Of a stretch of 16,873 nucleotides of DNA, positions 178 through 16,591 are shown in pieces. Within the stretch, counting starts at the first letter, position 1. Every line of letters begins with the position of its first letter. This DNA comes from Elusimicrobiota bacterium (lineage in GTDB: Bacteria > CG03 > SLGR01 > JAGXOG01), in assembly GCA_051745145.1 (NCBI GenBank), contig JBNJDT010000034.1:1-16873 (forward strand). Direction: 5' to 3'. The notes beneath the pieces were generated by a model that was not told the DNA's origin, ran no database searches, and saw only the letters and a list, made by a program, of their open reading frames with translations. The translations under genes were made by a program, and so were the position numbers.

Positions 178-753
178 TTATTCTATAATTTTCAGCGCCT
201 CTGTAGGACACTTACGTACACACACCTTACAACCGGTGCATCTTTGAAAATTAACTGACGGCAACCCGTTTTCGGTAAGATCTATGGCATTTTCCGGACA
301 GACATTTACGCAGATATAACATTTAATGCACCCCTTAGGACAGTATTCTTCAACTTCTTCGGGTTTTAAAGAAGTATTACATGATAAATATACTTTTCCC
401 TCACTCTGTTCAACCATCTTAATAAGATTAACCGGACACACTTCCATGCATATCCCGCAGCCGGTACATTTTTCATAAATAACATCCAGATTTTCGGTAA
501 TTGCATTCTCCGGACAACTTTTTATACACGATTTAAGCCCCAGGCAACTATCTTTACACACATAATTATTTTTAAATTTTCGGTAAGCTACCCGGCAGTC
601 TTTAATATTACCGTAATTAAATTCAGTTTCCCGGGGCAATGTGCATTTAATAATAGCTGCTGCCGGCTTAGATTCTTTAGTTCTGGGATTTTTAAAAACA
701 GGCTGCTTATATAAAATAAATACCAATATTACTAAAATAACAACGGCCCACAT
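178..753 (-). CDS. rnfB: RnfB-like membrane-anchored polyferredoxin, lacking the N-terminal Fe-S domain
   Basis: N-terminal hydrophobic anchor. RnfB-type segment Y.NIKDC..A.......CKDSCLGLKSCIKSCP, then CTGCGICMEVCP, CPKGCIKCYICVNVCP and CTGCKVCVRKCP. Last gene of a C-D-G-E-A-B order, with a TAATG overlap with the upstream gene at 751-755. Confidence 0.8.
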   Translation of the reverse strand: MWAVVILVILVFILYKQPVFKNPRTKESKPAAAIIKCTLPRETEFNYGNIKDCRVAYRKFKNNYVCKDSCLGLKSCIKSCPENAITENLDVIYEKCTGCGICMEVCPVNLIKMVEQSEGKVYLSCNTSLKPEEVEEYCPKGCIKCYICVNVCPENAIDLTENGLPSVNFQRCTGCKVCVRKCPTEALKIIE

Positions 754-1274
754 TATTTTAATCCCTCCATCAATAGCATAAATAGAGAAATTATAATTAA
801 AATGACCTGTTCTGGCTTTATATTACTATTTTTCTCAATATTAATATTTTTATAAACGGAATACACTGCAAAAACTAATCCTAAAAAACCTGTTAAAATA
901 AGTCCGGCCATATTTATATAATCCATAAAATTAGCCCCTGCTGTGCTGACATGAATAATTAAACCGGCCGCGAAGAGACTGTAATAGGCCCCCGGTTCTT
1001 TTTTTATCTCAGTAAAATTAAATATTCTGCCGGTTATTTCTCCGGCAATTATTACCACAAACGGGATCGCCATTAAATACAGCACTGGATCTTGGACCGC
1101 AGAAATTTCATTTAACCCCATGTAAATAAACAGCCCTGTTACAGAATGAGTTATTAAATATATGTAGTATTTAAGTAGATCTTTGGAATTATCCACCTCA
1201 GGGAGAATATCTACAATAAACCGGAGTCCGAAAAATAAGAAAAATGAACTTTTTAATAACTGTAAAATATTCAA
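753..1274 (-). CDS. Highly divergent RnfA-like integral membrane protein (no cysteines)
   Basis: Multi-pass hydrophobic 173 aa protein in the rnfA slot. Its C-terminal half (GAYYSLF...ANFMDYINMAGLILTGFLGLVFAVYSV...VILIIISLFMLLMEGL) follows the RnfA pattern (GIYLPLI..NC...NF.QS...G...GF.L.L.L...IR...IALI.AGLM.LAF.GF). TTG start overlaps the upstream TGA stop. Confidence 0.55.
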   Translation of the reverse strand: MNILQLLKSSFFLFFGLRFIVDILPEVDNSKDLLKYYIYLITHSVTGLFIYMGLNEISAVQDPVLYLMAIPFVVIIAGEITGRIFNFTEIKKEPGAYYSLFAAGLIIHVSTAGANFMDYINMAGLILTGFLGLVFAVYSVYKNINIEKNSNIKPEQVILIIISLFMLLMEGLK

Positions 1275-1759
1275 ATTTTTATTCTCCGGAGTATAAAACT
1301 GTAAATTATCATAATCAACACTGTGTATAACATTAACAATCCGGCCGTTATATTTGGCACCCGGCTTATTAATAAAGCAGTAAACCCCAAAGTTCCAAAA
1401 CCGGCGACTATGCCGCTAAACCAGAATAAATCGGCCCGGAATGAAAAATTTCCCGTTCCCCGACCGGTTACATAAACTGTCCAAATTACCGCTAAAGTAT
1501 GGAAAATTCCCAGCTCTCCTGAGGGAATAACCCCGAATAATAAAGCTGACCATATAACCGTAAGTACCAATAATTCTCTGCGGTCCAGATAATCAAATAA
1601 AAAATAATTAATTATACCCCCGCCCAATACTGCTGATAACCCGGTTATAATCGATATAGCAGGCTCCAAGCCGTAATATATAAAACCAAGCAAGGGAACT
1701 ACCCCCGCTCCCCGGGAAAATACTGTCTGTATACCTTTAATGAAGTTTGTTTTTTGCAT
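1271..1759 (-). CDS. Highly divergent RnfE-like integral membrane protein (no cysteines)
   Basis: Sits in the rnfE slot. FIKGI...GAGVVPLLG aligns with RnfE F.NG.....LGLCPLLA, and LGIFHTLAVIWTVYVTGRG aligns with RnfE LGIFIPLIVVNCIILGRAE. Confidence 0.6.
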   Translation of the reverse strand: MQKTNFIKGIQTVFSRGAGVVPLLGFIYYGLEPAISIITGLSAVLGGGIINYFLFDYLDRRELLVLTVIWSALLFGVIPSGELGIFHTLAVIWTVYVTGRGTGNFSFRADLFWFSGIVAGFGTLGFTALLISRVPNITAGLLMLYTVLIMIIYSFILRRIKI

Positions 1760-2192
1760 CTTGAATGGCTTCCAGTAAGCCCTCGCTTGACTGTGTCGCT
1801 CCGCTTACCGCATCAATGTCGGTTGTCTGATTATCTATGATTCGGGGAATAATTTCCCCCCGGACCTTATTCCAGTATTTGCTTATCTCCCGGGACTCAA
1901 TAACCTCAATATCTGTAATAACCGGCGAGCTTCCCGGTCCCCTATTTTCAAAAGTAACTTCTACTATTATCTTCCCGGCAAACCCCTGGCCCGTTCCTTT
2001 TTTGACTACATCTTTTTTTAATCCGGGGGAAGGGTCTTCTTTTTCTACAGTTCCCTTAGAAACACCGCCCTTTTTTTGTTGTTTTTCCTGTGCTTTTTCG
2101 TGACCCGGACTCTTTTTCACAGCAGTATTTTTCTGTGATGATATAATAAAAGCTACCGCCAAAGACAATATTATAACAATAATTTTTCTCAT
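1737..2192 (-). CDS. Membrane-anchored FMN-binding-domain protein in the RnfG position
   Basis: N-terminal signal/anchor helix, Lys/Glu/Pro-rich linker, then an FMN_bind-type domain (GTGQGFAGKIIVEVTF...ITDIEVIES.E...DIDAVSGATQSS) with an intact [S/T]GA[T] ApbE flavinylation motif. Confidence 0.85.
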   Translation of the reverse strand: MRKIIVIILSLAVAFIISSQKNTAVKKSPGHEKAQEKQQKKGGVSKGTVEKEDPSPGLKKDVVKKGTGQGFAGKIIVEVTFENRGPGSSPVITDIEVIESREISKYWNKVRGEIIPRIIDNQTTDIDAVSGATQSSEGLLEAIQDAKNKLH

Positions 2193-2941
2193 ATATTTTC
2201 CACTATACTTCCAACTAAAGCACCGGCCAATATTCCCAAAACCCCAAAAATAGAAATTGCAATACCCGTAACCAGGCCGGTAATTCCCTTATCCTTATTT
2301 TGCAATGGAAGAACTCCGGGATAGGAAAGCAATAAACTTCCCCACAGGAAAAGAGGCAGATAATTGTTAAATTCCGCCCAGCCGGAAAAAATTAACTTTG
2401 TTATTAAAAATCCCAGCGCTATAAATAATATAAAATAGAGATTAACCCTTTTTCTAAAGATTAGATATATTATCCCTGCCAGATATAAATAAACTGTAAT
2501 GCCAAAATTATCGGGCCCGAACGAATTAATATATTTCATCAAAAGTAACGGCGCTATAATTACCGGTTTAAACGGGGTCACCGGCGGCCCTTTAAATATT
2601 ATTTCATATATTATAATCGATAATAGCACCGCCCCCCCTACAATAACAAACCTATTTGTTCCCGTTACGGACAGCCTGTACCAGACCATAAGAAATATTA
2701 AAATTCCGGTGACTGCAGATTGCAAAATTTTTACTGTAATCTTTTTCTTTTTAAAATAACCTGTTATTCCAAAAGTAAATGCAGATATAATTAAAATCCC
2801 CAGGAATTCAACTCCCTGGCCAGTTAAAAATAACCGGTAACCCAAAGCCGGCAGCAGAGCAATCAATAAATCAGTCCATACGTATAACTCCTCGCGAGAT
2901 TTATGGGCAAAAGGAGGTAACCCCACCATAAACGTATTCAT
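2189..2941 (-). CDS. rnfD: Divergent, shortened RnfD-like membrane protein (about 250 aa)
   Basis: Start re-assigned to the ATG at 2941, which overlaps the rnfC TGA stop as ATGA. The N-terminus MNTFMVGLPPFAH.....WTDLLIALLPAL matches RnfD 'SSPH.H......M.DV.IAL.PA'. AVTGILI, IFKGPPVTPFKP (cf. LFGG.G.N.FNPA) and AGIIYLIFRKRV (cf. GG.YL..RK.I) also match. Confidence 0.7.
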   Translation of the reverse strand: MNTFMVGLPPFAHKSREELYVWTDLLIALLPALGYRLFLTGQGVEFLGILIISAFTFGITGYFKKKKITVKILQSAVTGILIFLMVWYRLSVTGTNRFVIVGGAVLLSIIIYEIIFKGPPVTPFKPVIIAPLLLMKYINSFGPDNFGITVYLYLAGIIYLIFRKRVNLYFILFIALGFLITKLIFSGWAEFNNYLPLFLWGSLLLSYPGVLPLQNKDKGITGLVTGIAISIFGVLGILAGALVGSIVENI

Positions 2942-3918
2942 TCTAAATACCATCCCGGACATAAAAACCCGCACAATCCACATCCGATACACCCGTCTAC
3001 TTTAGAAAAAGGAATAAATCCCCGGCCGTTTTTAAAAATTTTAAGGATATGGGGGCTTTCCAGATATTGGGGGCAAACTTCTATACATTTTCCGCACCCG
3101 ATACACCCGTCTAATTTACTGCTGTAATTATTTAGTATTATTAAATTATCAAAATTACCGGCCCGTAAATCTTCCATGGATTTTACCGCCTGTCCGGACA
3201 GCAAACCGTTCTTTACAACAAATTTACCGGTACCCCCTATCTTATCTATTAACTCCCTGGCTACGGTATTTTTATTAACCTTAAAAAGGTGGTTTATTTT
3301 TTCATAATTTAAAATCACATATTCATTTTCATCGGTTTCAGAATAGTCTATAAATCTGTAAAGTTTAATTAATTTTTCTATTGCTACCACCAGATTCCCC
3401 CTTTTTCCCGGAAAATAATTATCTCTCTTTTTTATCCCGTATATGTATTTCCATAATATCTCATTAAATCCGAGAGGATACCGGTTCTTCTCCTCTTTAA
3501 GAAAGATATTAGGAGACCGTCGAATTTGCTCATCCAGTTTATTTATAAATTCCATATGCCGGGGAACTATTAACCGGCCGTAATCCGCGGCAACAGCTTT
3601 CATGATTAACTTCAACCCGCCGATTATTTGAAAATTGAAAAGCTCCAGGAGTATGTTTCTATAACCGATAAAAGGATACTTAACCATCCCGTTTCCAGTC
3701 ACCCGGCCGCATCCCACTTTCTCTATTTTTAGTAATTCCCTTTCAGTAAAAACACCGGACTGAATAATTTTTTCTCTTAAGTAGTCTCTATCTTCCGTGT
3801 GAAACTTAGATGGCGGCCGTTTTTTGTCTTTTCCGGATTTTTCTTTCTTTTCGCGGTAATCTACCAAATCCATCCGGGGTATATTTATTCTAACTTTCCC
3901 TCTTAAACTTTTTAACAT
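2938..3918 (-). CDS. rnfC: Divergent RnfC-like protein with a C-terminal 2x[4Fe-4S] domain
   Basis: YPLGFNEILWKYIYG (cf. YP.G.EK.LI....G), GTGKFVVKNGLLSG (cf. GG....I.GGPMMG), and CIGCGKCIEVCP plus CIGCGLCGFLCP. First gene of the C-D-G-E-A-B order. Confidence 0.7.
   Translation of the reverse strand: MLKSLRGKVRINIPRMDLVDYREKKEKSGKDKKRPPSKFHTEDRDYLREKIIQSGVFTERELLKIEKVGCGRVTGNGMVKYPFIGYRNILLELFNFQIIGGLKLIMKAVAADYGRLIVPRHMEFINKLDEQIRRSPNIFLKEEKNRYPLGFNEILWKYIYGIKKRDNYFPGKRGNLVVAIEKLIKLYRFIDYSETDENEYVILNYEKINHLFKVNKNTVARELIDKIGGTGKFVVKNGLLSGQAVKSMEDLRAGNFDNLIILNNYSSKLDGCIGCGKCIEVCPQYLESPHILKIFKNGRGFIPFSKVDGCIGCGLCGFLCPGWYLE
2981..3118. repeat. 24-bp near-identical direct repeat (22/24; 16-bp exact core) encoding both ferredoxin motifs of the RnfC-like protein
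   Basis: catccgatacacccgtctacttta (2981-3004) versus cacccgatacacccgtctaattta (3095-3118). These encode K-V-D-G-C-I-G-C and K-L-D-G-C-I-G-C. Confidence 0.85.
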
Positions 3919-4817
3919 AATTGGAGGACCTTTTCTATTGTGTTAGTATGTATATCCACTGTATCTTTTAACTCTTTTGATTTTCCGCCCCCCAATAATA
4001 CGGACACCGAAATATTATTTGAAATTGCTTCGTTTAATACAATTTCATCTCTTTTAATAAAATCTCTCTTTTCCAGCTTTAAATCCCCCAAAAGGTCTTC
4101 TTTATAACTACAGGCTCCGGCTATATATATTATAATATCCGGTTTTAAAAAATCTAATTCTTTTTTCAGCTGTTTTTTCAACATATTATTATAAGTCTTA
4201 CCGGAAATATTTTCACTTAAAGAAAAACCCCGGTCCGGGGTTTCCTTAATTATAGGATAAAACTCTTTAGAGTAAAAAGAGAGCACTCTGATATTCTTAT
4301 TGGGCTTTAATATGCTTATAGTACCGTCTGCCTGGTGTAGGTCGCAATCTAAAATCAAAACCCGGCGCCCATCACGGGCTAATTTTAACGCCCCGTAAGC
4401 CACATCGTTAAATACTGTAAAAGCACCGGGTCTATTTTTGTGGGCGTGGGTGAAGCCTCCTCCAATAAATACGCTGCCTCCATCTTCTAAAGCCGCCCGG
4501 CCGCTAAGATAAACCCCGGTGCAGGAGCTAAGAGCAACTTCAGCCGCTTTTTTAGGATATTTAAGTTCTGTCTGAATCTGCTCGGCAACCGACAAATCGC
4601 CGTTTAAGGCTCTATAAATATAATCTTTTGTATGAATACAACTAAGTTCCTCCGGGGAAAGAGAAGGAGTAATTTGAAAAGATTCCCGGCTAAAATATTC
4701 TTTTTCTAACAGCCACTTTTTTATTAATCTGTATTTTTCAAAAGGGTAAGAAGCAGAATCGGAAAGTTCTTCGTAACCGGGATTGTAAAAAATTTCGGAT
4801 TTAACTGACTTCGGCAA
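3912..4817 (-). CDS. Histone deacetylase/AcuC-family protein with substituted catalytic residues
   Basis: HDAC-fold motifs: YPFEKY, L..IHT.DYI, GGGFTHA, GAFTVFND, LDCDLHQADGT, PD.I.Y.AGAC...EDLLG and LGGGK. TTG start. Confidence 0.85.
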   Translation of the reverse strand: MPKSVKSEIFYNPGYEELSDSASYPFEKYRLIKKWLLEKEYFSRESFQITPSLSPEELSCIHTKDYIYRALNGDLSVAEQIQTELKYPKKAAEVALSSCTGVYLSGRAALEDGGSVFIGGGFTHAHKNRPGAFTVFNDVAYGALKLARDGRRVLILDCDLHQADGTISILKPNKNIRVLSFYSKEFYPIIKETPDRGFSLSENISGKTYNNMLKKQLKKELDFLKPDIIIYIAGACSYKEDLLGDLKLEKRDFIKRDEIVLNEAISNNISVSVLLGGGKSKELKDTVDIHTNTIEKVLQLC

Positions 4818-4826
4818 ATTATTCTG

Positions 4827-5489
4827 CTACCAGATATAACGAACTTTGCCGCCCAGGGTAACCCCCAGGAGACTGCCGGCCGGAGTATCGGTGGTCATAA
4901 AACTTTTTAAGCCCACAAACCAGTCCCAGTTGGGATTCATGGGAAAAACTTCCATGCCCATTTTTTGCTGAAACCCAAAAGCTGTCGTCACGGGGTGGGA
5001 AATAGTCTCTCCCGGTTCAGAGCCGGGGGTGGCCCTGTGATTACCCAGGGGTTCTTTACTGTAAAATACGTGATACATTCCGATTCCTCCTCCTATATAA
5101 AAAGCATCGTAAATCGTATATATAAAATTTACGGTCATCGGAACAACATTTAATTTTACAGATATATTTTTTCCGGCGTCATCTAAAACATCCTGGGAAT
5201 AACTCTGTATATCGCCTTCTATTTCCTCTTCGGTGTAATTTACTTCTTCAAGCGATCCAAACATATATCCAAGCCCTAACTCCAAAGATTTCGAATCTAC
5301 CTCCCGAATGCCGGTTATCATAAGAGCGGGAGAAAGAAGTCTGCCGCTTTGAGCGGCATCACCTACCGCAAGACCTAACTCGCCGCCAAGCTCCCAATCT
5401 TCCCAGGAAGCGGCCCGGGCAATATTGAAAAAAGTAATTACTACAGCTACCAGAAATGTAAATATTCTAAAATACCGGTATCTTCTCAT
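4827..5489 (-). CDS. Outer-membrane beta-barrel protein (OmpW/OmpA-transmembrane-like)
   Basis: Signal peptide ending ARA-A. Amphipathic strands such as VVPMTVNFIY, FYIGGGIGMY and WDWFVGLK. C-terminal aromatic signature GGKVRYIW. Confidence 0.7.
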   Translation of the reverse strand: MRRYRYFRIFTFLVAVVITFFNIARAASWEDWELGGELGLAVGDAAQSGRLLSPALMITGIREVDSKSLELGLGYMFGSLEEVNYTEEEIEGDIQSYSQDVLDDAGKNISVKLNVVPMTVNFIYTIYDAFYIGGGIGMYHVFYSKEPLGNHRATPGSEPGETISHPVTTAFGFQQKMGMEVFPMNPNWDWFVGLKSFMTTDTPAGSLLGVTLGGKVRYIW

Positions 5490-6397
5490 CCTTTCTCTTT
5501 TAAAAGGTCTTCTAAGATTGCCTGCTGGATATGCATTCTATTTTCCGCCTGTTCAAATACATAGGAGTGTTCTCCGTCCATGACCTCATCGGTAATCTCC
5601 TCGCCCCGGTGGGCGGGCAGACAATGCATTACCATGACATCGGATTTGGCAACTTCCAGCAAATCTGTATCCACCCGATAGGAAGAAAATTTTTCCAGTC
5701 TCTGGGACTGTTCCTGTTCATCTCCCATACTAACCCATACATCGGTGTATATAGCATCCGCATCTTTAGAAGCTTCAACCGGATCGTTTAAAATTTCTAT
5801 ATTGGGGTTCTTCTTTTGGGCCGGGCTGATAATTTCATCGGCGGGTTCAAAATTTTCCGGTGAAGCAACGCTCAGCTGAAAGCCGAAAATCCCGGCTGCA
5901 TTTATGAGGGAATTACATACATTATTACCGTCCCCTATAAACGAAACTTTTAAATTCTCAAAATCAAATCCCTTGACCTCTGCTATGGACATAACATCGC
6001 CCATGGCCTGACAGGGATGTAAAAGATCAGTCAAACCGTTAATAACCGGAACTCCGGCAGCTTTTCCCATCTCTATGACATCCCGGTGGGAATAGGTTCT
6101 GATCATTATGGCATCCACATATCCGCCCAGGGTTTTAGAAGTATCGTAAATAGTCTCACCTCTGGAAAGCTGTAGAGTTTCGCTTCCAAGGTAAAGAGCA
6201 TCGCCGCCCAGCCGTTTCATAGCTATATGAAAAGAGACATTTGTCCTGGTGGACGGCTTTGTAAATATCATAGCCAGATTTTTATTCTTGCCCGCTTTCG
6301 GGGTCTCACCATTTTTAAGTTCAATACCTCTTTTTAAAAGTCCAGTCAGGTATTTTTCACCGTGATTCCTTAAATCAATTAAATTATTTTTATTCAT
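5486..6397 (-). CDS. argF: Ornithine carbamoyltransferase
   Basis: Canonical motifs F.KPSTRT, NGLTD..HPCQ, GDGNNV, YTDVWVSMG and HCLPAHRG, plus AENR. Confidence 0.95.
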   Translation of the reverse strand: MNKNNLIDLRNHGEKYLTGLLKRGIELKNGETPKAGKNKNLAMIFTKPSTRTNVSFHIAMKRLGGDALYLGSETLQLSRGETIYDTSKTLGGYVDAIMIRTYSHRDVIEMGKAAGVPVINGLTDLLHPCQAMGDVMSIAEVKGFDFENLKVSFIGDGNNVCNSLINAAGIFGFQLSVASPENFEPADEIISPAQKKNPNIEILNDPVEASKDADAIYTDVWVSMGDEQEQSQRLEKFSSYRVDTDLLEVAKSDVMVMHCLPAHRGEEITDEVMDGEHSYVFEQAENRMHIQQAILEDLLKEKG

Positions 6398-7595
6398 TAT
6401 CCTTTAACACCGCATCTACATCTTTCAAACCGTTCCCGGTCAGCAAACAAACTGCCGGAGAAAGCTTTCCAATATCTTCCCCGCTGCCGGCCAGTTTTCT
6501 AAGGCCCGCAACGCTGGTTACTCCCGCAGGTTCGGCAAAAACCCCGGTATTCTCAGCCAGATAAGATATATTATCTATGATTTCTTTATCCGGCACCCTT
6601 ACCGACCGGCCGCCGGTTTCTAAAACAGACCGGACTGCAGCTATACCGTCCCTGGGCTGGTCCACGGCAATGGAATCGGCAACAGTTGAAGCCTGCACCA
6701 TCTCCATCTTAATATCCCGGGGACTGATATTTTTATCATCTATATTTTCCAGGGTTCTGGTAACAGCATCTGAGTTGGCGCTTTGAACTGCTATAATTTT
6801 GGGCATCTTTTCTATAAGATCCAGTTCTTTTAAATCCCGGAACCCTTTCCATACCCCGCTTATTATATTACCGTCACCCACAGGTACAAAAACTGAACCC
6901 GGAGCTTTGTAACTTAACTGCTCCCATATTTCAAAAGCAACAGATTTTTTTCCTTCTCTGGTATAAGGATTATATCCGGTACACCGGTTAAAATAATTAT
7001 TCTCCAGAGAGTCGGACACGCAAAGATCATAGGCCTCATCATAAGTACCCGAGACCAATCGCACATCGGCTCCGTAGACTCCCAGCTGGGCTATTTTAGC
7101 CCGGGGTGCTGACTCGGGCACATATATTATAACTTCCACACCAGATGCCGCTCCCATACAGGCCCAGGAGCATCCGGCATTTCCCGTTGACGCACAACTT
7201 ACCACCTCAATACCTTTCTCCCGGGCCACGGCCATAACCACAGAACTGGCCCGGTCTTTAAATGAAGCTGACGGCAGGCGGGTATCATCTTTTAAATACA
7301 CCTTATCCAGTCCCGTCTGTTCAGCTATATCTTTATTGTCATACAACGGGGTAAGCGACATATCCAGAGCAGGTATAAACCTGCTATCCTCAAAAGGGAA
7401 AAGAGGCATGTAACGCCATACATCCCGCTGGGGATTGTTCTTTAAGGCGGGTACTGAAAATATTCTTTTTATATCGTCGTAATCATAGGTTACATCCAGA
7501 TTACCAGAACAATCTTTGCAGGTGTACCCGTCATAATCCGGGGAATGCTGTTTTCCGCAGACCAGACACTCAAAACCGGTCATAAAATTCGACAT
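6390..7595 (-). CDS. Threonine-synthase-like fold-type II PLP enzyme with N-terminal CxxC...CxxC zinc ribbon
   Basis: SFKDR (PLP lysine), CASTGNAG, NP...EG.K, VPVGDGN, EPAG and LTGNGLK. N-terminal CLVC...CKDC. Substrate uncertain, so no gene symbol is given. Confidence 0.85.
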   Translation of the reverse strand: MSNFMTGFECLVCGKQHSPDYDGYTCKDCSGNLDVTYDYDDIKRIFSVPALKNNPQRDVWRYMPLFPFEDSRFIPALDMSLTPLYDNKDIAEQTGLDKVYLKDDTRLPSASFKDRASSVVMAVAREKGIEVVSCASTGNAGCSWACMGAASGVEVIIYVPESAPRAKIAQLGVYGADVRLVSGTYDEAYDLCVSDSLENNYFNRCTGYNPYTREGKKSVAFEIWEQLSYKAPGSVFVPVGDGNIISGVWKGFRDLKELDLIEKMPKIIAVQSANSDAVTRTLENIDDKNISPRDIKMEMVQASTVADSIAVDQPRDGIAAVRSVLETGGRSVRVPDKEIIDNISYLAENTGVFAEPAGVTSVAGLRKLAGSGEDIGKLSPAVCLLTGNGLKDVDAVLKDNE

Positions 7596-7596
7596 A

Positions 7597-8538
7597 TTAC
7601 TTAGTAAAAGTAGTGCCGGTTTTACCCGTAGCGCAATCCTTTAAATTAGCAGGTGAAGTAACTACTGCTTTTTTGCCGCCGTCTTCTATATACCGGAGGA
7701 TAGCCTTAATTTTAGGCAGCATACTGCCCTCGGCAAAATGGCCTTCATCAATATACTTTTTAGCTTCTTCAACAGAAAGGGAAGATAATTTTTTCTCATC
7801 ATCCTGTCCGAAATTTAAGCATACATTATCAACAGCAGTTGAGATTATAAACATATCCGCATCCAGGCGGGTAGCCAGCAGGGCAGAAGCATAATCTTTA
7901 TCAATTACAGCGGGTACCCCTTTTAACATGCCGTCATCCCGCTTGTAAACCGGTACGCCACCGCCACCTACGCCGATAACAGTATAACCGCTCTTAGCTA
8001 AAGCACCGATGGCATCTTCTTCGAGTATCTGCTTGGGATCCGGAGAGGGTACTACCCTACGGTAACCGCGGCCGGCATCTTCAACTATATTCCAGCCCTC
8101 TTCACTCTCTTTTTCCTTAGCTTTTTTTTCATCCATAAAGCTCCCTATGGGCTTGGAAGGATTTTCAAAAGCGGGATCGTCTTTATCTACCAGAACTCTG
8201 GTTATTACTGTTGCAGCTTCCTTCTGAATTCCCCTATTATCGAATTCGTTTTTTAAGGCCTGCTGGAACAGGTAACCTATGGCGCCCTGAGTATCCGCCC
8301 CGCAAGAATCCAAAGGAACAGGATGTATCCCTTCTTTTTCTCCCAGTTCCGAACGTCTCAGAATAAAACCCACCTGCGGGCCGTTTCCATGGGTAATTAT
8401 AACATCCCATCCGTCTTCTATAAGATCCACAATATGTTTGGAAGTCTCCACTACCGCCGAATACTGGTCGGGCACACTCTGGTGCTGGGCATCCTTAATA
8501 AGTGAATTTCCACCAACTGCGATTACTGCTAAAGGCAT
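7597..8538 (-). CDS. arcC: Carbamate kinase (ArcC/YqeA)
   Basis: AVGGNS, THGNGPQVG, GADTQG.IGY, DPAF.NP.KPIG, EDAGRGYRRVVPSP, GGGGVPV, AVIDKD and GSMLPK. GGAGG Shine-Dalgarno upstream. Confidence 0.95.
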   Translation of the reverse strand: MPLAVIAVGGNSLIKDAQHQSVPDQYSAVVETSKHIVDLIEDGWDVIITHGNGPQVGFILRRSELGEKEGIHPVPLDSCGADTQGAIGYLFQQALKNEFDNRGIQKEAATVITRVLVDKDDPAFENPSKPIGSFMDEKKAKEKESEEGWNIVEDAGRGYRRVVPSPDPKQILEEDAIGALAKSGYTVIGVGGGGVPVYKRDDGMLKGVPAVIDKDYASALLATRLDADMFIISTAVDNVCLNFGQDDEKKLSSLSVEEAKKYIDEGHFAEGSMLPKIKAILRYIEDGGKKAVVTSPANLKDCATGKTGTTFTK

Positions 8539-8583: not shown

Positions 8584-9606
8584 TTATTCTGCCATGGTTA
8601 AAGCCATTATAGCTTTTTGGACATGAAGTCTGTTTTCAGCTATATCTACAATAATAGACCGGGGCCCGGACGCAACTTCATCAGTAACTTCATGATTTCT
8701 GTCCACAGGCATAGGGTGAGAAAATACAGCGTCATTAGTTATTTGCATTTTTTCCTCATCACAAATCCAGTCTTCATATTTTAGGGCTTTTTCTATCTCT
8801 TCCTCTTTGCGGAGCTTTCCGCCGCGATAGGCGTCTTTACTCATCCAGTTTCTGGAATAAACTATATCCGCATCTTCGTAAGCTTCGGCCGGATCGTTGG
8901 ATACTGCAAACTCAGTACCGTTTTCCTGGCAATTTTTCTTAGTCCACTCTAAAACTTCATCGTCAAGTTCATAACCTTCGGGATGGGCTACTCTGACATT
9001 CATTCCCATTCTCGAGTTTATTAACATACTCTCGTGTACCGAGCAGTGTGAACGGGCCAGGGCACCGTGTCCCCAGGCATGAACAATAGTCTTGTCTTTT
9101 AAATCTTCACTTACGTGTTTGCGATATCCCATTACATCGGCAAGTCCCTGACAGGGATGAAACCTATCGTGAGCCATGCTTATTATAGGCATATCGGCAT
9201 ATTTAGCATAATTTTTAAGCAACTGATCGCCCAGTCCGTACTCTCCGATTTTATCTTCCAATATTCTTATGCCCAAACCAACTGCATAGCGGGACATAAC
9301 TTTAGCGGCGTCTTCTACTGTTTCTCCTGCCGAATCTTTTGTTTTTAGTCTCATGGCAGAAGGTTCTAAGAATAAGGCGTGTCCCCCTAATTCTGTAGCC
9401 GCAATTTCAAATGACTGCCTGGTTCTAACCGAAGGGTTATAAAAAAACATTAAAAAACTTTTACTATTTAAAATATTTGTAAACTCCGGAGCAAATCTTT
9501 TTTTCTGCATCTCTTCAGCCAATTCTAAAACTTCTAAAAGTTCTTCCTTTGACCAATCCTGTGTGGTAATTAAATCTTTACCGTAATATTTTGATTTTCC
9601 TTCCAT
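8584..9606 (-). CDS. Divergent carbamoyltransferase of the YgeW/AOTCase-like group (second paralog)
   Basis: NPSVRTR, HPCQGLAD, AWG, ADIVYSRNW, HPMPVDR and AENRLH. Lacks the OTCase DxxxSMG ornithine loop. AGGAGG Shine-Dalgarno upstream. Confidence 0.85.
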   Translation of the reverse strand: MEGKSKYYGKDLITTQDWSKEELLEVLELAEEMQKKRFAPEFTNILNSKSFLMFFYNPSVRTRQSFEIAATELGGHALFLEPSAMRLKTKDSAGETVEDAAKVMSRYAVGLGIRILEDKIGEYGLGDQLLKNYAKYADMPIISMAHDRFHPCQGLADVMGYRKHVSEDLKDKTIVHAWGHGALARSHCSVHESMLINSRMGMNVRVAHPEGYELDDEVLEWTKKNCQENGTEFAVSNDPAEAYEDADIVYSRNWMSKDAYRGGKLRKEEEIEKALKYEDWICDEEKMQITNDAVFSHPMPVDRNHEVTDEVASGPRSIIVDIAENRLHVQKAIMALTMAE

Positions 9607-9695: not shown

Positions 9696-10772
9696 TTACA
9701 GCCGGCCGCCCATTAACATTGCCATAATTGCTTTATGGGCATGTAACCGGTTTTCAGCTTCGTCTATAACTACAGACTGAGATCCGTCAATTACCGGATC
9801 CGTAACTTCCTGGCCTCTGTCAGCGGGCAAACAATGCATATATTTACCGTTTTTGTTTACCAGATTCATCTGCTTTTCAGTTGTCATCCAATCTTTATTA
9901 GCCTCGTTTAGTTCTTCAGCTTTTTCCAGGTCCTGTTCTTTAACTGTTTTATTATTCTCATCTGTATAATTAAAACAGGAAGCAGCTCCCCAGGATTTAG
10001 GATAAACTATATCCGCATCTTCGAAACCTTCGTCAAAATCATCGGTGATTCCAAAAGAACCATTTTCCTGATCGGCAAAACTTTTGCAGGTTTCTATGAC
10101 ATTAGGATCCAGTTCAAAACCTTCCGGACGGGCCAGAGTCACATCCATCCCCATCTTTGAGGCGGCAAGTATTACGCTCTGGGGTACAGCCCGCGGTTTT
10201 TCAATTGAACCGGAATAGGCCCAGGACATAGTCAGTTTTTTGTTTTTAAACCCGCCCATCTTTTCTTTTATAGTCATAAGATCAGCAAGGGCCTGGGTGG
10301 GATGATATTTATCACACTCCATATTAATCACGGGTATATCAGCCCATTCAGCAAACTCTTTAATGGTCTCATTTGCAAATCCGTAAATCCAGTGAGCCTT
10401 AGGTCCATACATTCTTATGGCTATAGCATCACCTACTCTACTGAGAATCCTCGAAACATCGGAAATTCTCTCTGTTTCATAAGGTATTTCAAAACCTTTT
10501 CTGGCCGGGGTGTAAGTTTTACCCGGTTCCAGATCAACATGATAACCACCTAACTGCTGTATTCCGGCCGCAAATGTGCACCGGGTCCTGAGAGACTGAT
10601 TAAAAAATATAGTAAATAAAGTCTGCCCTCTTAAAAGATCATCCATGGGTTCTTTCATGGCATATCTTCTTTTAAGTTCCAGACCTACATCAATCATGGT
10701 CTCCCATTCCTCTTTGGAAAAATCCAAAGTTGCATCAATCCAATCTCTTCCAAAAAATCGATTAGTCTTCAT
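9696..10772 (-). CDS. ygeW: YgeW-like carbamoyltransferase
   Basis: SLRTR, HPTQALAD, KKLTMSWAYSGSIEKPRAVPQS (cf. E. coli YgeW-type WAYSPSYGKPLSVPQG), DIVYPKSW, YMHCLPAD and EAENRLH. AGGAGG Shine-Dalgarno at 10781-10786. Confidence 0.8.
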   Translation of the reverse strand: MKTNRFFGRDWIDATLDFSKEEWETMIDVGLELKRRYAMKEPMDDLLRGQTLFTIFFNQSLRTRCTFAAGIQQLGGYHVDLEPGKTYTPARKGFEIPYETERISDVSRILSRVGDAIAIRMYGPKAHWIYGFANETIKEFAEWADIPVINMECDKYHPTQALADLMTIKEKMGGFKNKKLTMSWAYSGSIEKPRAVPQSVILAASKMGMDVTLARPEGFELDPNVIETCKSFADQENGSFGITDDFDEGFEDADIVYPKSWGAASCFNYTDENNKTVKEQDLEKAEELNEANKDWMTTEKQMNLVNKNGKYMHCLPADRGQEVTDPVIDGSQSVVIDEAENRLHAHKAIMAMLMGGRL

Positions 10773-10863: not shown

Positions 10864-11847
10864 TTACTTAGGTACAGTAAACTTTTTCTCTTTGCTAAAA
10901 TTTAAATTTTCAAACCAGTCTTTAATACAACATCTTACCTTATAGTCCCCGGACGGTAAACCCTTATAATCAAACACTAAATCATAAGGCGCCGAATCCA
11001 CCGGATACCCTATATCTTTCCAGCCATTGCCATTATTAATTTCCAAAGTTACTTCCGTTATATAATTGCCGGTTACTTTTGTATTCACTACCATACGGGT
11101 ATCCACGACAGGATGCTGTCTTAAATCTGTTATCTCCACCGAACTCTCCGGGGAACCTTTTTTAACCATTTTTATAGCGAGCCCCGGTTGAAAAAAATTT
11201 ATCCCGGTAGTCTCCCCCCCTTCTTTTACGAGAAAAGAGTTTTCTCCTTTTTCTTCTCCTATGCCCCCTGCAAGTACAGGGGCTGTTTTAACACTGTTAA
11301 GTTCTTTATCCGGACTCCACAGATGAATATAGTTAAAATCCTGTTTATTAATTTCCTCTTCGGAAACCTCAACCCAGAACCATTTGCTTTCTCTTACATA
11401 CTCGTCCGCCCGGGTAGGAGAACCCTCCCTGGGAATCTTATCAGTGGTAGTTAACAGTTTAGCCTGGGGACGTTGTTCTACAGAACCGGATAATCCTATG
11501 TGAATTCTATAGGGACCGTCTGACGGTTCTATATCAGATTCCTGTTCTCCCAAAATTTTCTCTATCTGTTTCTCTGTTTTAGCTCTACCCAGTTTTGCCC
11601 CTATAAAAAATCTATCATACTCTTTTGTTTTTGCCCGGGGAACTTTATTTATCCATCCGTGCCCATAACCGACATACCAGTTTCCCGACCAGCCGCCATT
11701 GGCAAAAAGATTATATTCGGCGGGCGTAGGGAGCCCCGATATAAAATCAGTATACTTATCATCCGTGCACCCGGACCCGGTTATTACCGAAAGCATTATA
11801 CCTGTTCCAATGAAAATTAAAATTTTGAATTTATTTAACTTTTTCAT
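10864..11847 (-). CDS. Hypothetical exported protein / probable lipoprotein with a C-terminal Ig-like beta domain
   Basis: Basic N-terminus, hydrophobic stretch and a lipobox-like GSGC. Aromatic/Gly motif YNLFANGGWSGNWYVGYGHGW. C-terminal APY.....Y..LP.G.Y.V.....D...N pattern typical of bacterial Ig-like domains. Confidence 0.65.
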   Translation of the reverse strand: MKKLNKFKILIFIGTGIMLSVITGSGCTDDKYTDFISGLPTPAEYNLFANGGWSGNWYVGYGHGWINKVPRAKTKEYDRFFIGAKLGRAKTEKQIEKILGEQESDIEPSDGPYRIHIGLSGSVEQRPQAKLLTTTDKIPREGSPTRADEYVRESKWFWVEVSEEEINKQDFNYIHLWSPDKELNSVKTAPVLAGGIGEEKGENSFLVKEGGETTGINFFQPGLAIKMVKKGSPESSVEITDLRQHPVVDTRMVVNTKVTGNYITEVTLEINNGNGWKDIGYPVDSAPYDLVFDYKGLPSGDYKVRCCIKDWFENLNFSKEKKFTVPK

Positions 11848-12904
11848 TTACTATAAATCCGGGCAAACCGGAATAAAATTCTACAGCTTTTTCAACTTCC
11901 AGGATATCAATTTTTTCTTCAGGGGAATGACATTCTTCTTCTTTTCCCGGACCAAACCCGATAGTGGGAATTTCTCTATCTCCGGCTGTGTAAGAACCGT
12001 TTGTACAGAAGGGCCAGAACTTTGTCTTTTCACTACCGGTTATCTGCTGTTGCGTTTTTCGGGCTGCAGCATATAAAGGATTGTCAAAAGATATTTTCCA
12101 GGGTTTATAATAAGGAGTAATACCTTCGACAAAATCTTTCTCCTTCACAATTTTTTTAAATGCTGATAGAATTTCCTGTTCGGATCTACCCACACCGCTT
12201 CTGTAATCACAATATACAGTGCATTTTTCCGGTATAATATTTATATTTTCATTTGAGGTCTCCACCTTGGTCACGACCACTGAATCTTTCTTTAATTCGG
12301 AATTAATTTCTTTTACTTTTTCTATTATTTTAACCGCCCGGTAAATAGAATTTTCTCCGGCTTCCGGGTCACTGGCGTGCCCGGCTTTGCCTGTAATATT
12401 CAATTTTATACCCAAACGGCCCCGGTTTCCAAAAGCCACCTTTAAGCCCGATGGTTCACCTATTACAATGTAATCCGGTTGAATTTCAGTTTCTTCAAAA
12501 AAGTTCTTCAGACCGTTCCCCTCGGCCACTTCTTCCCGAACACTCCCTACAACATACAGAGTTATCCCTTCTACATCAGCTTTCGCTCCCCCGTAAACCA
12601 TGGCCGCCAAGGATCCTTTATCATCGCAGGAGCCCCGGCCTATAAGATTTTTATCCTTCATCCTCACCTTGTAGGGATCGTCTTTCCAGCCCTGTCCGGG
12701 TTCTACAACATCCATATGAGCATCGTAAATCACTACCGTATTTCCGTCCCCGCGGCGACCGCAGATATTACCTCCGGATTCTATAACCTCATCGTAGTTG
12801 AGTTCTGAAAACTCCTTTTTAAGACGACCGGCAACTTTCTCTTCCCGGCCGGATAAGGATGGGATTTCAACTAACTCTTTTAAAAATTCTACAACCGGAG
12901 ACAT
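11831..12904 (-). CDS. ygeY: YgeY-family M20 metallohydrolase
   Basis: YDAHMDVV, GRGSCDDKG, V.EE, IGEP, G.RGR, GHAS.P, W.F.TNG (YgeY-type), GFGPG.E..CH. Adjacent to ssnA. Confidence 0.8.
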   Translation of the reverse strand: MSPVVEFLKELVEIPSLSGREEKVAGRLKKEFSELNYDEVIESGGNICGRRGDGNTVVIYDAHMDVVEPGQGWKDDPYKVRMKDKNLIGRGSCDDKGSLAAMVYGGAKADVEGITLYVVGSVREEVAEGNGLKNFFEETEIQPDYIVIGEPSGLKVAFGNRGRLGIKLNITGKAGHASDPEAGENSIYRAVKIIEKVKEINSELKKDSVVVTKVETSNENINIIPEKCTVYCDYRSGVGRSEQEILSAFKKIVKEKDFVEGITPYYKPWKISFDNPLYAAARKTQQQITGSEKTKFWPFCTNGSYTAGDREIPTIGFGPGKEEECHSPEEKIDILEVEKAVEFYSGLPGFIVNEKVK

Positions 12905-12905
12905 T

Positions 12906-14219
12906 TTACTCTATATTTTCCCAAACTTTTTTAGCAGTTTCCCTAGCCCGGGCTAAAACTTCCTCCTCTTTAATTTTTAGAATTTTCTTATGTCTCATCA
13001 GAATCTCACCGTCACAAATTGTACTATCTACTGAGTAATCTCCCATTCCAAAAAGAAAGTGTCCCAAAAAATTATCCTTATTGATAGGGGTAGCCGGATC
13101 GTAGTCTATGGTAACTATGTCGGCATAAGCTCCCGGTTTTAATTTACTGTTATCCCATCCCGTAATTTTATCTAAAATTTTGGGATTATTATTTAACAGC
13201 ATATCCGGAACTTCCGTAAAAGCTACCGCCGGATCCTGGTATTGATGCCTGGCCAGCAAAAAAGCAGTCCGGGCCTGACTTCTTACATCCGAACTCATCC
13301 CGTCCGTACCTATTCCCACATCTAAGCCTTCCGAATACATATCCAGTATTTTAGAATATCCGACAGCGTTATTCATATTACTCTCGGGATTATGAACTAC
13401 CGAAGAACCGGCCGCTTTTATCAGCTCCCTTTCGGACTGGTCTATATGTATGCAGTGTATTAATAAACTTTTTTTATTTAATGCCCCGGCTTCATGAAAT
13501 CTTTCTATAACTGATTGTCCGTATTTTTCGCGGGTTCTCTCCTGATCAGCAATGCCTTCTGCAGCGTGAACATGAATTCCGGCATTAAATTTTTCTGCCA
13601 GATGAACACTTTTTTCCAGTGTCTCCTGATCAACCGTAAAAGAGGCATGTAACCCAACCATGCCCTTTATTTTGTCAAAATCCTTTCTTAAAAAACGTTC
13701 ATTTTCTTCCAGGCCCTGTTCTCCTTTACCGAACCGGTCCGAGGCGCCCAGACATAAAACACCTTTTATTCCCATCTGTTCAACTGCCTTACTTATTTCA
13801 TCAAGACTGCCTATCTGATACGATTGACTCTCATGATGATCTATTACGGAAGTAACCCCGCACTTTATACTTTCTATGATAGGAACTATAGCTGAATAAT
13901 AAATAGCTTCCCTGAAAAGAGCATCGTCAAGTTTCCACCACATATTCTCAAGCACCTGGTCAAAATTACCGGTGGGCTCTGACGGGGCCCATCCCCGGGC
14001 AAAAGTTGAATAAAAGTGATGATGGGTATTTACAAAAGAGGGCATAATTATCTTTCCCGTAGCATCTAATACATCCGCGCTGTCGTATTTTCTTTTTATC
14101 TGAGATAATTCGCCAATAGCTTTTATTTTTTTTCCCTCTACTACCACTGCCCCGGGATTAAAAATTCTATTGTTTTCATCCAACGTCACCACTGTTCCGC
14201 CTTCGATTCTTACTGTCAT
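12906..14219 (-). CDS. ssnA: SsnA-family amidohydrolase
   Basis: NTHHHFYSTFARG, LE.MWWKLD, GVT.VIDHH, GLHASFT, HVHAAE, HNPESNMNNAVG and GTDG. AGGAG Shine-Dalgarno upstream. Confidence 0.9.
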   Translation of the reverse strand: MTVRIEGGTVVTLDENNRIFNPGAVVVEGKKIKAIGELSQIKRKYDSADVLDATGKIIMPSFVNTHHHFYSTFARGWAPSEPTGNFDQVLENMWWKLDDALFREAIYYSAIVPIIESIKCGVTSVIDHHESQSYQIGSLDEISKAVEQMGIKGVLCLGASDRFGKGEQGLEENERFLRKDFDKIKGMVGLHASFTVDQETLEKSVHLAEKFNAGIHVHAAEGIADQERTREKYGQSVIERFHEAGALNKKSLLIHCIHIDQSERELIKAAGSSVVHNPESNMNNAVGYSKILDMYSEGLDVGIGTDGMSSDVRSQARTAFLLARHQYQDPAVAFTEVPDMLLNNNPKILDKITGWDNSKLKPGAYADIVTIDYDPATPINKDNFLGHFLFGMGDYSVDSTICDGEILMRHKKILKIKEEEVLARARETAKKVWENIE

Positions 14220-14274: not shown

Positions 14275-15231
14275 TTACTTTTTGTTGATTCTTTTTTCGA
14301 CACTATTTAAAGCCCGGCGGGCTGCTCTTTTTACCCGGGTGTCATAGTCCTGAACAGCTTGTTCTAAAAATACTTTAACATCTTCATCTCCAACAAGCCC
14401 CATAACCCTGCAGGCTTTTATTTTTATTTGAGGATCCGAGGATTTTATAGCACTGATAGCTTCGCTCAACCCGGCTTCTATTCCCATTTTTGCCAGGCTT
14501 AAGGCCGCTGTAACTCTTACCATAGGAGAGCTGTCTGAAAGAAAATCTTTTAAAGTTTCTCGACCTTCTACAGCCTTTAATTCTCCCAGAGCATTGAGGA
14601 GCTGGACTTTAACTACTTCAGATTCTTCTAATTTCAACAATTCCACAAGAGAAGGAACTAACTGTTTAAAACCTCTTTTTGCTATAACCTGTACCGCGCT
14701 TTTGCGAACTCCCGCATTTACGTCTTTTAATTTAGCTTGCAAAATCTGTTGAATTCTCTCCACACTGCCATTTTCCGTTAACTTACCCAAGTTAAAAATA
14801 GCTTTCTGTCTTACAATAGGATTATTAGACTCTGCCTTTTCTATGATCTTTTCCCGTACAGTTGGCGTAGAAAAATTTATCGCCGCCCCCATTGCTTCAA
14901 TCTGTAAATTAATTTCACCCTGATCCATAATTGACAGTAGCGTAGAAATTGCCGAAACGTTTTTTATATCCCCCAGACTTTTTACAGCCACTCTCCTCAC
15001 CCGCCTGTCAATATCCTTATTTAAAGCAATCCTTTTAAGAGCATCAATGACTTTTTTGTTATTATAATCCCTAAGTTCCCGGGCGGCTGTCATCTGTCTA
15101 TTTCTATCTGAACTATACAGCCTTTCTAAAAGCATCTGTACCCTGGGGGTTAAATTATTTTCTTCAGTCCACCCCTTGAAACTTATTGATAATAATAAAC
15201 AACCGGCTAATATTATGTACTTAACTCTCAA
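14275..15231 (-). CDS. Exported HEAT/PBS-lyase-like repeat protein
   Basis: Signal-peptide-like N-terminus, then roughly 31-aa helical repeats (VRRVAVKSLG, VRQKAIFNLG, VRKSAVQVIA, VRVTAALSLA, VKRAARRAL). TTG start overlapping the upstream gene by 11 nt. Confidence 0.85.
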   Translation of the reverse strand: MRVKYIILAGCLLLSISFKGWTEENNLTPRVQMLLERLYSSDRNRQMTAARELRDYNNKKVIDALKRIALNKDIDRRVRRVAVKSLGDIKNVSAISTLLSIMDQGEINLQIEAMGAAINFSTPTVREKIIEKAESNNPIVRQKAIFNLGKLTENGSVERIQQILQAKLKDVNAGVRKSAVQVIAKRGFKQLVPSLVELLKLEESEVVKVQLLNALGELKAVEGRETLKDFLSDSSPMVRVTAALSLAKMGIEAGLSEAISAIKSSDPQIKIKACRVMGLVGDEDVKVFLEQAVQDYDTRVKRAARRALNSVEKRINKK

Positions 15232-16591
15232 TACCTGCTTTTTTCCGTAAATTTCTTGATATAGTATTGGCTTTCTTAGTCAATTTCTCTGTATCAATAT
15301 CTACCAGTTTAAAATTTTTAACCCTCACTTTACCGTTGACAATAACCGTATGCGCAAAATGAGAAGCCCCCGAAAAAACCAGGGCCCCTAAATAATCACT
15401 GTTAGAGCCGGCAAAATCTACTCTGTCTGTATCAAATACCGCAATATCTGCAGCCTTGCCTTCTTTTAAAACTCCTATATCCCTCCGTCCCAGAACATCA
15501 GCGCCTCCCCGGGTGGCCATTTTTAAGACATCAACTGCACTCATAGAATCCACCCCTGATTTATAGCGGGCTACTAGCATAGCCAGCCGGGTTTCTCCAA
15601 GCATATCCGAGGTATCATTCGATGCGGAGCCATCGACGGCAATAGAAACATTTACTCCGGCATCTAACATTTTTCTTATGGGAGCTATTCCCGAACCTAA
15701 ACGTAAATTAGAAGAAGGACAATGAGCCACGCCGCTGCCGGTATCCGCCAGCCTTTTAATCTCCTTATCATTTAAATGGACACAATGGGCAAACCATACG
15801 TCTTCTCCCAGCCAGTTAACTTTCTCCATATAGGGCAGGGGCCGCATACCCGTCTGTTCCAGACAAAATTCTTCTTCATCTTTGGTCTCCGCAAGATGAG
15901 TATGCATATATACGTTATTTTCTCTGGCCAGCCGGGAGGTATCTTTCATTATCTGCTCAGTTACTGAAAAAGGTGAACAGGGTGCTAATACTATCTGACA
16001 CATAGAAAATTTCGAAGAATCATGATATTGATTTATAACCCGTTCGGACTCCTGTAAAATTTTATCGTCATCCTGTATTACGCTGTCCGGGGGAAGGCCG
16101 CCATCGGATTCTCCAAGCGACATACTTCCTCTGGTGGGATGAAATCTTATACCCATTTCCCGGGCCGCCTCTATTTCTATATCTATTAAATTGCTTTTTT
16201 GAGATTCCGGATAAAGATAAAGATGATCGCTGGTAGTAGTACAACCGGTAAGGAGCAACTCCGCCGTACCCACTCTGGTACTGACATCCACCGCTTCATC
16301 ATCAATATATTTCCATACGTTATAAAGATATTTAAGCCACTTAAAAAGTTTTGCATCCTGGACCTGTTTTAAATTCCGGGTTAATGTTTGATACAAATGA
16401 TGGTGGGTATTTATCATACCCGGAATTACCACTTTCCCTCTTCCATCTATCTCTTCATCAGCCTTTTGGGTAATATTTCCTATTTTTTTTATCTTATTAC
16501 CCTCGATTAAAATACTTTTATTCTTTAAAACCGTATTTTTATCGTCAAATGTTGCAATAACCGAAGCATTTTTAATTACAATAGTTTTCAT
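15221..16591 (-). CDS. Amidohydrolase of the 8-oxoguanine deaminase / AtzB-like subfamily
   Basis: NTHHHLYQTLTR, LF.WL..LY, GCTT.SDHLY, RGSMS.GE..GGLPP, LAPCSPFSV, HTHLAET, AHCVH, HCPSSN.RL.SG and VDGSASND. GGAG Shine-Dalgarno upstream. Confidence 0.85.
   Translation of the reverse strand: MKTIVIKNASVIATFDDKNTVLKNKSILIEGNKIKKIGNITQKADEEIDGRGKVVIPGMINTHHHLYQTLTRNLKQVQDAKLFKWLKYLYNVWKYIDDEAVDVSTRVGTAELLLTGCTTTSDHLYLYPESQKSNLIDIEIEAAREMGIRFHPTRGSMSLGESDGGLPPDSVIQDDDKILQESERVINQYHDSSKFSMCQIVLAPCSPFSVTEQIMKDTSRLARENNVYMHTHLAETKDEEEFCLEQTGMRPLPYMEKVNWLGEDVWFAHCVHLNDKEIKRLADTGSGVAHCPSSNLRLGSGIAPIRKMLDAGVNVSIAVDGSASNDTSDMLGETRLAMLVARYKSGVDSMSAVDVLKMATRGGADVLGRRDIGVLKEGKAADIAVFDTDRVDFAGSNSDYLGALVFSGASHFAHTVIVNGKVRVKNFKLVDIDTEKLTKKANTISRNLRKKAGIES

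Follow-up and report, generated by a model that had tools for sequence, protein, structure and literature searches.

The 16.9 kb stretch of DNA analyzed here (the window) is the whole of contig C34 (JBNJDT010000034.1) of an Elusimicrobiota genome (G000, assembly GCA_051745145.1) that is 1.8 Mb long and 92.6% complete, and all of its genes lie on the minus strand. In order of transcription they encode an 8-oxoguanine deaminase family amidohydrolase, a HEAT-repeat protein, the aminohydrolase SsnA, a YgeY-like hydrolase, a 327-aa protein, two carbamoyltransferases, carbamate kinase (ArcC), the enzyme that is our subject, ornithine carbamoyltransferase (OTC), a 220-aa protein, a protein resembling histone deacetylases (HDAC) and acetylpolyamine amidohydrolases, and an Rnf-type gene set (Table 1). 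Our subject is a fold-type II pyridoxal phosphate (PLP) enzyme resembling threonine synthase (ThrC), which we call ThrCl. Its ATG (position 7595) lies one base past the arcC stop codon (TAA, 7599-7597), the 1-nt spacing given in the original prediction, and its last 8 nt are shared with the beginning of the OTC gene; an alternative database start four codons later would give 397 aa, and the N-termini of homologues agree with the 401-aa start. That prediction had placed the gene in an ssnA-ygeY-ygeW-carbamate kinase cluster. SsnA and carbamate kinase do pass curated cut-offs, but the YgeY-like and YgeW-like proteins fall short, so that ygeY and ygeW in this window denote likenesses rather than curated assignments. 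Family-profile annotation of the window proteins found no hom, thrB, or ygeX, in agreement with what had been noticed earlier.

The reductive urate pathway was elucidated in 2025, and for E. coli and Clostridia only. As outlined there, XdhD converts urate to 2,8-dioxopurine, which is reduced by YgfK or UacX and then ring-opened by SsnA (PMC12507026; bioRxiv 10.1101/2025.04.24.650524), and HyuA opens a hydantoin to give 2,3-diureidopropionate (PMC12507026; bioRxiv 10.1101/2025.04.24.650524; PMC12990295). YgeW removes one ureido group by phosphorolysis, yielding carbamoyl phosphate and, through carbamate kinase, ATP; YgeY hydrolyzes the other to leave 2,3-diaminopropionate, which DpaL (YgeX) converts to pyruvate and ammonia (PMC12507026; bioRxiv 10.1101/2025.04.24.650524). 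D-configured intermediates have been proposed, and the stereochemistry of the pathway and the order of the two ureido cleavages are presented as open points (PMC12990295). The original prediction was that ThrCl takes the place of a missing DpaL.

By its predicted structure, ThrCl is a ThrC-fold enzyme with the PLP lysine present. It matches the Pfam family PALP (E=1.8e-66), carries an N-terminal zinc ribbon of the form CxxC...CxxC (C10, C13, C26, and C29) as in PRK08197-type ThrC sequences, and has its PLP lysine, K113, within the motif SFKDR. An AlphaFold2 model built from 44 sequences has a mean confidence (pLDDT) of 91.8, and its best Foldseek matches are the threonine synthases 2ZSJ, 6NMX, 2D1F, and 1V7C (E 2.4e-27, with a template modeling score of about 0.83 on the target), followed by threonine deaminases and serine racemases. 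Among curated models, the threonine synthase model TIGR00260 scores just over its cut-off (177.2 bits against 167.1) while the other ThrC models fall short (NF006050, 252.9 against 303; NF004170, 195.5 against 421; NF006205, 181.2 against 358), as do the DpaL model NF006058 (47.8 bits against 276) and the cysteate synthase model TIGR03844 (52.3 against 324.9). Public records label the homologues 'threonine synthase'. With ThrC of the short bacterial and archaeal class (EC 4.2.3.1), ThrCl shares the fold, 30-33% identity, SFKDR, the ASTGN loop, and a C-terminal GNGLKD.

The two differ in the substrate pocket. ThrCl has the remodeled motifs CASTGNAGC, NRCTGYNPYTREGKK, and PVGDGN; the motifs NRCTGYNP and VGDGN named in the original prediction are present and are indeed non-canonical when set against solved threonine synthases. 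Compared with four of these and with the ThrC1 of this genome, 'NSVNPYRIEGQK' has become 'TGYNPYTREGKK', PVGNAGN has become PVGDGN, and CASTGNTSAS has become CASTGNAGCS. Written as patterns, NS-x-NP-x-R-x-EGQK is replaced by TG-x-NP-x-T-R-EGKK: NS gives way to TG, an arginine to threonine with a new arginine one place on, GNAGN to GDGN, and NTS to NAG. The replaced residues are ones that we take, from the Thermus thermophilus structures, to bind the phosphate of the ThrC substrate. With minor variants allowed, NRxTGxNPxTREGKK is found in all of 121 sequences (ThrCl itself and 120 among the matches listed), and R204, T206, G207, T212, D241, and K113 are invariant in the 44-sequence alignment. 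With its pocket motifs exchanged, and with a canonical hom-thrC-thrB-aspartate kinase operon elsewhere in the genome (contig C8; thrC 315.5 bits), ThrCl is probably not a threonine synthase, and judging from these residues it most likely no longer acts on O-phosphohomoserine. Likewise, five genomes of another class of the phylum have canonical thrC and thrB besides the subfamily copy.

ThrCl defines a subfamily whose members are at least 42% identical to one another and at most 36% identical to paralogues. In a quick tree with thin outgroup sampling, all 53 subfamily sequences fall into one clade (support 0.87, with a stem of 0.55 substitutions per site), and two further ThrC types found in the phylum lie outside it. 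We found no description of this subfamily in the literature, the supplements of the pathway papers lying outside that search, and in the ESM Atlas ThrCl falls only into generic 'threonine synthase family' or 'PLP-dependent enzyme' clusters. Cysteate synthase (TIGR03844) is a precedent for a ThrC-derived paralogue recruited elsewhere and has the zinc-ribbon ThrC architecture in common with ThrCl. It retains phosphate ester binding, whereas the pocket of ThrCl is remodeled.

A third ThrC-type gene of the genome, just downstream of genes for D-hydantoinase, panD, and gdhA, also encodes a zinc-ribbon protein. Its pocket is non-canonical (NINLRPYYAEGSK, PMASGS), yet it passes NF006050 (304.8 against 303), and it is present in SsnA-negative genomes too.

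The context of ThrCl is conserved well beyond this genome. A scan of one genome per species recovered confirmed ThrCl relatives in at least 582 species genomes (at least 600 stretches), and we examined the neighborhoods of the best 80 of these at least 582 loci, which are those most similar to the query rather than a random sample and come from Planctomycetota, Kiritimatiellia, Chloroflexota, Acidobacteriota, Gammaproteobacteria, SAR324, Clostridia, and others. Nine loci without an open reading frame (ORF) matching the query at 1e-60 were left out, leaving 71, and neighbors were counted, after clustering and annotation, as genes within the fetched stretch. Carbamate kinase is near ThrCl in 30 of the 71 (directly adjacent in 18), a YgeW-like carbamoyltransferase in 26, a 489-aa PLP enzyme resembling cysteine synthase (CysK-like) in 22, YgeY in 13, SsnA in 10, a selenium-type xanthine dehydrogenase in 7, D-hydantoinase in 5, OTC in 4, and DpaL in none. 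At least one pathway gene is present in 47 of the 71 loci. Membership of ThrCl in the reductive urate pathway is thus well supported: in the window it is co-located with ssnA, YgeY-type, YgeW-type, and carbamate kinase genes, and this context recurs across lineages.

The distribution of ThrCl follows SsnA and is largely complementary to that of DpaL. We scored 26 Elusimicrobiota genomes, 121 Anaerolineae genomes (at least 85% complete), and 150 Clostridia genomes. SsnA is over its cut-off in 19 of the 26 Elusimicrobiota, and 17 of these have ThrCl: 14 have ThrCl only, three have both ThrCl and DpaL (G000, its congener G015, and G023), two have DpaL only (G021 and G022), and none has neither. 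In four of the seven genomes whose SsnA is not full, both ThrCl and DpaL are missing; two others have ThrCl (G010 and G016, the latter 66% complete with its cluster contig cut), and one, G003, which is 63% complete and has a partial SsnA, has neither. Within the order, arcC-ThrCl-OTC lies in the same cluster in all eight other gene-bearing genomes, on some contigs that are cut. In G021 and G022 the cluster is retained but arcC is followed directly by OTC, so that exactly ThrCl is missing from it, and DpaL is present. Among Anaerolineae, SsnA is found in 95 genomes, ThrCl in 84, and DpaL in one; 81 genomes have both SsnA and ThrCl, 14 SsnA only, 3 ThrCl only, and 23 neither. SsnA is rarer in Clostridia (9 of 150), where in eight of the nine DpaL lies no more than about 10 kb from SsnA and ThrCl is missing; the ninth, which lacks DpaL, is the seed genome and was picked for its ThrCl. 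DpaL was likewise found in none of five ThrCl genomes from five other lineages. The direction of the complementarity agrees in three separate lineages, largely the exclusivity that had been predicted for ThrCl and ygeX in ssnA clusters, although three Elusimicrobiota carry both genes.

One premise of the original prediction did not hold. The organism does have a genuine dpaL, unlinked to the cluster, so there is no gap here for ThrCl to fill, and the two routes would be redundant in this genome. Beside this dpaL are typA, a gene for a DOC-family toxin, and two small ORFs without an assignment (G000:C28:5947-10119). These neighbors have no counterpart next to the DpaL gene of G021, and the dpaL of G000 resembles an accessory or acquired gene.

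We consider ThrCl to be a neofunctionalized threonine synthase paralogue that works at the last, three-carbon stage of the reductive urate pathway, probably together with the CysK-like enzyme, and we put the probability of this at about one half. ThrCl would probably do the job of DpaL, or part of it, a proposal that draws on gene distribution. YgeY-type and YgeW-type genes persist beside ThrCl, and so we infer that diaminopropionate is still formed and needs an outlet. DpaL (EC 4.3.1.15) and ThrCl belong to the same superfamily of fold-type II PLP enzymes, keep the same cluster company, and are distributed in a complementary manner among SsnA-positive genomes; they are only about 25% identical over part of their length and lie on different branches of that superfamily. 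The ThrC scaffold can deaminate, since threonine deaminase activity is reported for ThrC enzymes (PMC12172450). In the reaction we envisage, 2,3-diaminopropionate would bind the PLP at K113 to form an external aldimine, and beta-elimination of the beta-amino group would give aminoacrylate and then pyruvate and ammonia, with the invariant Asp241, the counterpart of the asparagine of GNAGN, holding or protonating the leaving amine. The CysK-like partner may take the other enantiomer or act as a racemase, given that D-configured intermediates have been proposed (PMC12990295). The fold, the changed motifs, the recurring cluster context across phyla, and the tie to SsnA with complementarity to DpaL are observed, while the substrate, the reaction, the role of Asp241, and the division of labor with the CysK-like enzyme are inferred. 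DpaL needs no partner to act on D and L substrate, but ThrCl is accompanied by a second PLP enzyme; the replacement of DpaL may thus be a two-enzyme PLP module, whose members may split the work on D- and L-diaminopropionate either as racemase and lyase or as two stereospecific lyases.

Several observations weigh against this proposal. DpaL is present alongside ThrCl in G000, G015, and G023, and in all five DpaL-bearing Elusimicrobiota it is unlinked to SsnA, so that its own role in the pathway is assumed in this phylum. No pathway gene is nearby in 24 of the 71 ThrCl loci, and 14 of the 95 SsnA-positive Anaerolineae lack ThrCl. In another class of the phylum, a homologue with 50-54% identity sits in a housekeeping setting (hisS-gene-(dapL)-folK-panC). 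Related genomes are not independent, and the counts therefore overstate their statistical force. As to chemistry, the emptied phosphate pocket would be roomier than diaminopropionate requires and would fit a ureido side chain equally well, and ThrC binds an L-amino acid, whereas D-configured intermediates have been proposed (PMC12990295). Finally, the CysK-like gene is present in 85 of the 95 SsnA-positive Anaerolineae, including 13 of the 14 that lack ThrCl; because it is distributed as ThrCl is, the CysK-like enzyme could be the true lyase. The proposed replacement of DpaL is thus supported in part, by the complementary distribution and the precise loss of ThrCl in G021 and G022; what tells against it is the DpaL of G000 and the second enzyme that co-varies equally.

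The strongest alternative, which we regard as rather unlikely though deserving of serious weight, follows from this last point: the CysK-like enzyme would be the real replacement for DpaL, and ThrCl would carry out a neighboring step, either racemizing diaminopropionate or albizziin from D- to L- or acting on a ureido-alanine. The CysK-like enzyme has weak similarity to cysteine synthases and, like ThrCl, falls only into the generic clusters of the ESM Atlas. Its gene lies beside ThrCl or YgeY in the 22 loci counted above (for example at L135:11234-12703 and L088:5295-6800), and it is missing from both DpaL-only Elusimicrobiota, G021 and G022. It occurs together with ThrCl in 18 Elusimicrobiota genomes, with G023 having ThrCl only and G003 the CysK-like gene only. 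In Anaerolineae it is found in 87 of 121 genomes, 73 of the 121 having it with ThrCl, and it tracks SsnA slightly better than ThrCl does (85 against 81 of the 95); a single SsnA-positive genome lacks both. On the other hand, nine SsnA-positive Anaerolineae have ThrCl without a CysK-like gene, and YgeY is kept in ThrCl clusters. In SsnA-positive Clostridia, the CysK-like gene lies beside ThrCl in the seed genome and a 34%-identical match occurs in one DpaL genome. A complex prediction for the two proteins, both supplied as alignments, scored 0.00, which speaks neither for nor against binding. Separately, one in-frame stop (mostly TAG) was flagged in 14 of the 88 CysK-like matches listed in Anaerolineae.

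The two versions of this alternative differ in what ThrCl would do. As a racemase, it would suit the proposed D-configured intermediates (PMC12990295) and the serine racemases among its structural neighbors, but no racemase-specific residue was identified in ThrCl. In the ureido-alanine version, ThrCl would catalyze beta-elimination or replacement on albizziin, and the former phosphate pocket, lined in ThrCl by Thr, Gly, and Asp, would suit the length of a ureido side chain; elimination from albizziin would, however, release urea and so waste a carbamoyl group that is otherwise harvested by transferase and kinase. Because the CysK-like enzyme co-varies as tightly as ThrCl, the data fit either enzyme, or both, doing the job of DpaL, and it is the shared form, with ThrCl as one partner, that we favor.

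It is improbable that ThrCl is a mere passenger in the purine cluster and serves carbamoyl-phosphate, ornithine, or arginine metabolism, a reading suggested by its position between carbamate kinase and the only OTC gene of the genome. The 8-nt overlap with OTC and the presence of OTC after ThrCl in eight of eight syntenic genomes would fit this, as would the gene content, since the window OTC is the sole one found and argH is present while carB was not found in this genome, which is 92.6% complete. Arginine synthesis may therefore draw its carbamoyl phosphate from the purine cluster, via the transferases or carbamate kinase. However, only 4 of the 71 loci from other lineages have OTC near ThrCl, whereas carbamate kinase is near it in 30 and YgeW-like transferases in 26, and the OTC link is confined to the order and a few close relatives. 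G021 and G022 retain arcC-OTC without ThrCl, and the phyletic link of ThrCl is to SsnA. An arginine deiminase pathway, considered as an explanation for arcC-ThrCl-OTC, was rejected because no arginine deiminase gene (arcA) was found in the genome.

That ThrCl is a working, redundant threonine synthase is the least probable reading by far: the TIGR00260 score, the names in public records, and the best structural matches would favor it, but the pocket motifs kept by solved threonine synthases and ThrC1 are replaced, a canonical operon is present while no threonine genes lie near ThrCl, and its distribution tracks SsnA rather than threonine biosynthesis.

Table 1. Features of the window and related genes elsewhere in the genome. 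Positions with the prefix G000 lie outside the window; scores are in bits.
Feature	Position	Strand	Remarks
8-oxoguanine deaminase family amidohydrolase	15221..16591	-	NF006055 642.8, cut-off 532
HEAT-repeat protein	14275..15231	-	syntenic
SsnA aminohydrolase	12906..14219	-	NF005540 511.3, cut-off 444
YgeY-like M20 hydrolase	11831..12904	-	289.8, cut-off 321
Conserved 327-aa protein, no family	10864..11847	-	syntenic across order
Carbamoyltransferase A (AOTCase/YgeW-like)	9696..10772	-	under every curated cut-off
Carbamoyltransferase B (AOTCase/YgeW-like)	8584..9606	-	under every curated cut-off
Carbamate kinase (arcC/yqeA type)	7597..8538	-	NF009007 412.5, cut-off 266; TIGR00746 386.1, cut-off 358.25
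ThrCl (P0001), ThrC-like fold-type II PLP enzyme	6390..7595	-	401 aa
Ornithine carbamoyltransferase (OTC)	5486..6397	-	sole OTC-type gene found in genome
Conserved 220-aa protein, no family	4827..5489	-	syntenic
HDAC/acetylpolyamine-amidohydrolase-like protein	3912..4817	-	syntenic
Rnf-type gene set	178-3918	-	syntenic with cluster in related genomes
CysK-like PLP enzyme	G000:C2:69872-71338		489 aa; TrpB-like PLP motif PTGAHKVG; no curated family
ThrC-type gene, third of genome	G000:C26:5881-7116		411 aa; zinc ribbon
ygeX/dpaL	G000:C28:8842-10119		528, cut-off 276
Xanthine-dehydrogenase-type operon	G000:C41:1760-11507

The remaining genes of the window offer candidates for other steps. The tandem carbamoyltransferases are paralogues with 34% mutual identity that miss the cut-offs for OTC, acetylornithine carbamoyltransferase (AOTCase), YgeW, and putrescine transferase alike: their best model scores are 266.8 and 263.4 against a cut-off of 288, and the YgeW model gives 178.7 and 125.5 against 453. 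Carbamoyltransferase A shares 42.5% identity with the YgeW-like transferase of locus L088. Between them, the pair might recover both ureido groups of diureidopropionate in the form of carbamoyl phosphate. Neither the 327-aa nor the 220-aa protein has a Pfam, NCBIfam, or PDB sequence match; as the cluster has no hydantoinase, one of these two or the HDAC-like protein might open the hydantoin ring.

The Rnf-type set comes after the cluster in the same orientation. It has family matches for C-, G-, and B-type subunits only, the C-type being short (326 aa), and the other three ORFs have no family match and are assigned by position alone; the set may provide the reductive steps with reduced ferredoxin. 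In the congener G015 (L058, G015:C3:20000-36000), genes of nucleoside salvage and catabolism come before the cluster on the same strand; they encode adenine deaminase, a phosphopentomutase-type enzyme, purine and pyrimidine nucleoside phosphorylases, adenosine and cytidine deaminases, and an HD phosphohydrolase. Elsewhere in G000, the xanthine-dehydrogenase-type operon on contig C41 (MobA-like, XdhC, molybdenum subunit, FAD and 2Fe-2S subunits) is adjoined by an AIR-synthase-family gene (PF00586/PF02769) and has a 451-aa PALP-family gene at its end, and a second set of this type lies on contig C3.

Beyond this genome, it is possible, though we would not bet on it, that DpaL is a minority last step outside gut Bacillota and Enterobacteria and that most environmental anaerobes use a module of ThrCl and a CysK/TrpB-like enzyme instead. 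Published surveys have counted the last step differently: any PF00291 protein near SsnA was colored YgeX in one (PMC12507026), YgeX at 50% identity or more was required among seven markers in the other (bioRxiv 10.1101/2025.04.24.650524), and the terms 'threonine synthase' and 'cysteine synthase' were not found in the text of either, supplements lying outside the search. If the two-enzyme module is real, surveys that use YgeX or PF00291 as a marker miscount or mislabel such clusters, and if ThrCl is terminal in most lineages, the pathway has a widespread and unrecognized variant. Homologues annotated as 'threonine synthase' would then probably be mislabeled in at least 582 species genomes, and ThrCl would show cleanly how the rebuilding of a phosphate pocket can turn a biosynthetic gamma-replacement enzyme into a catabolic one.

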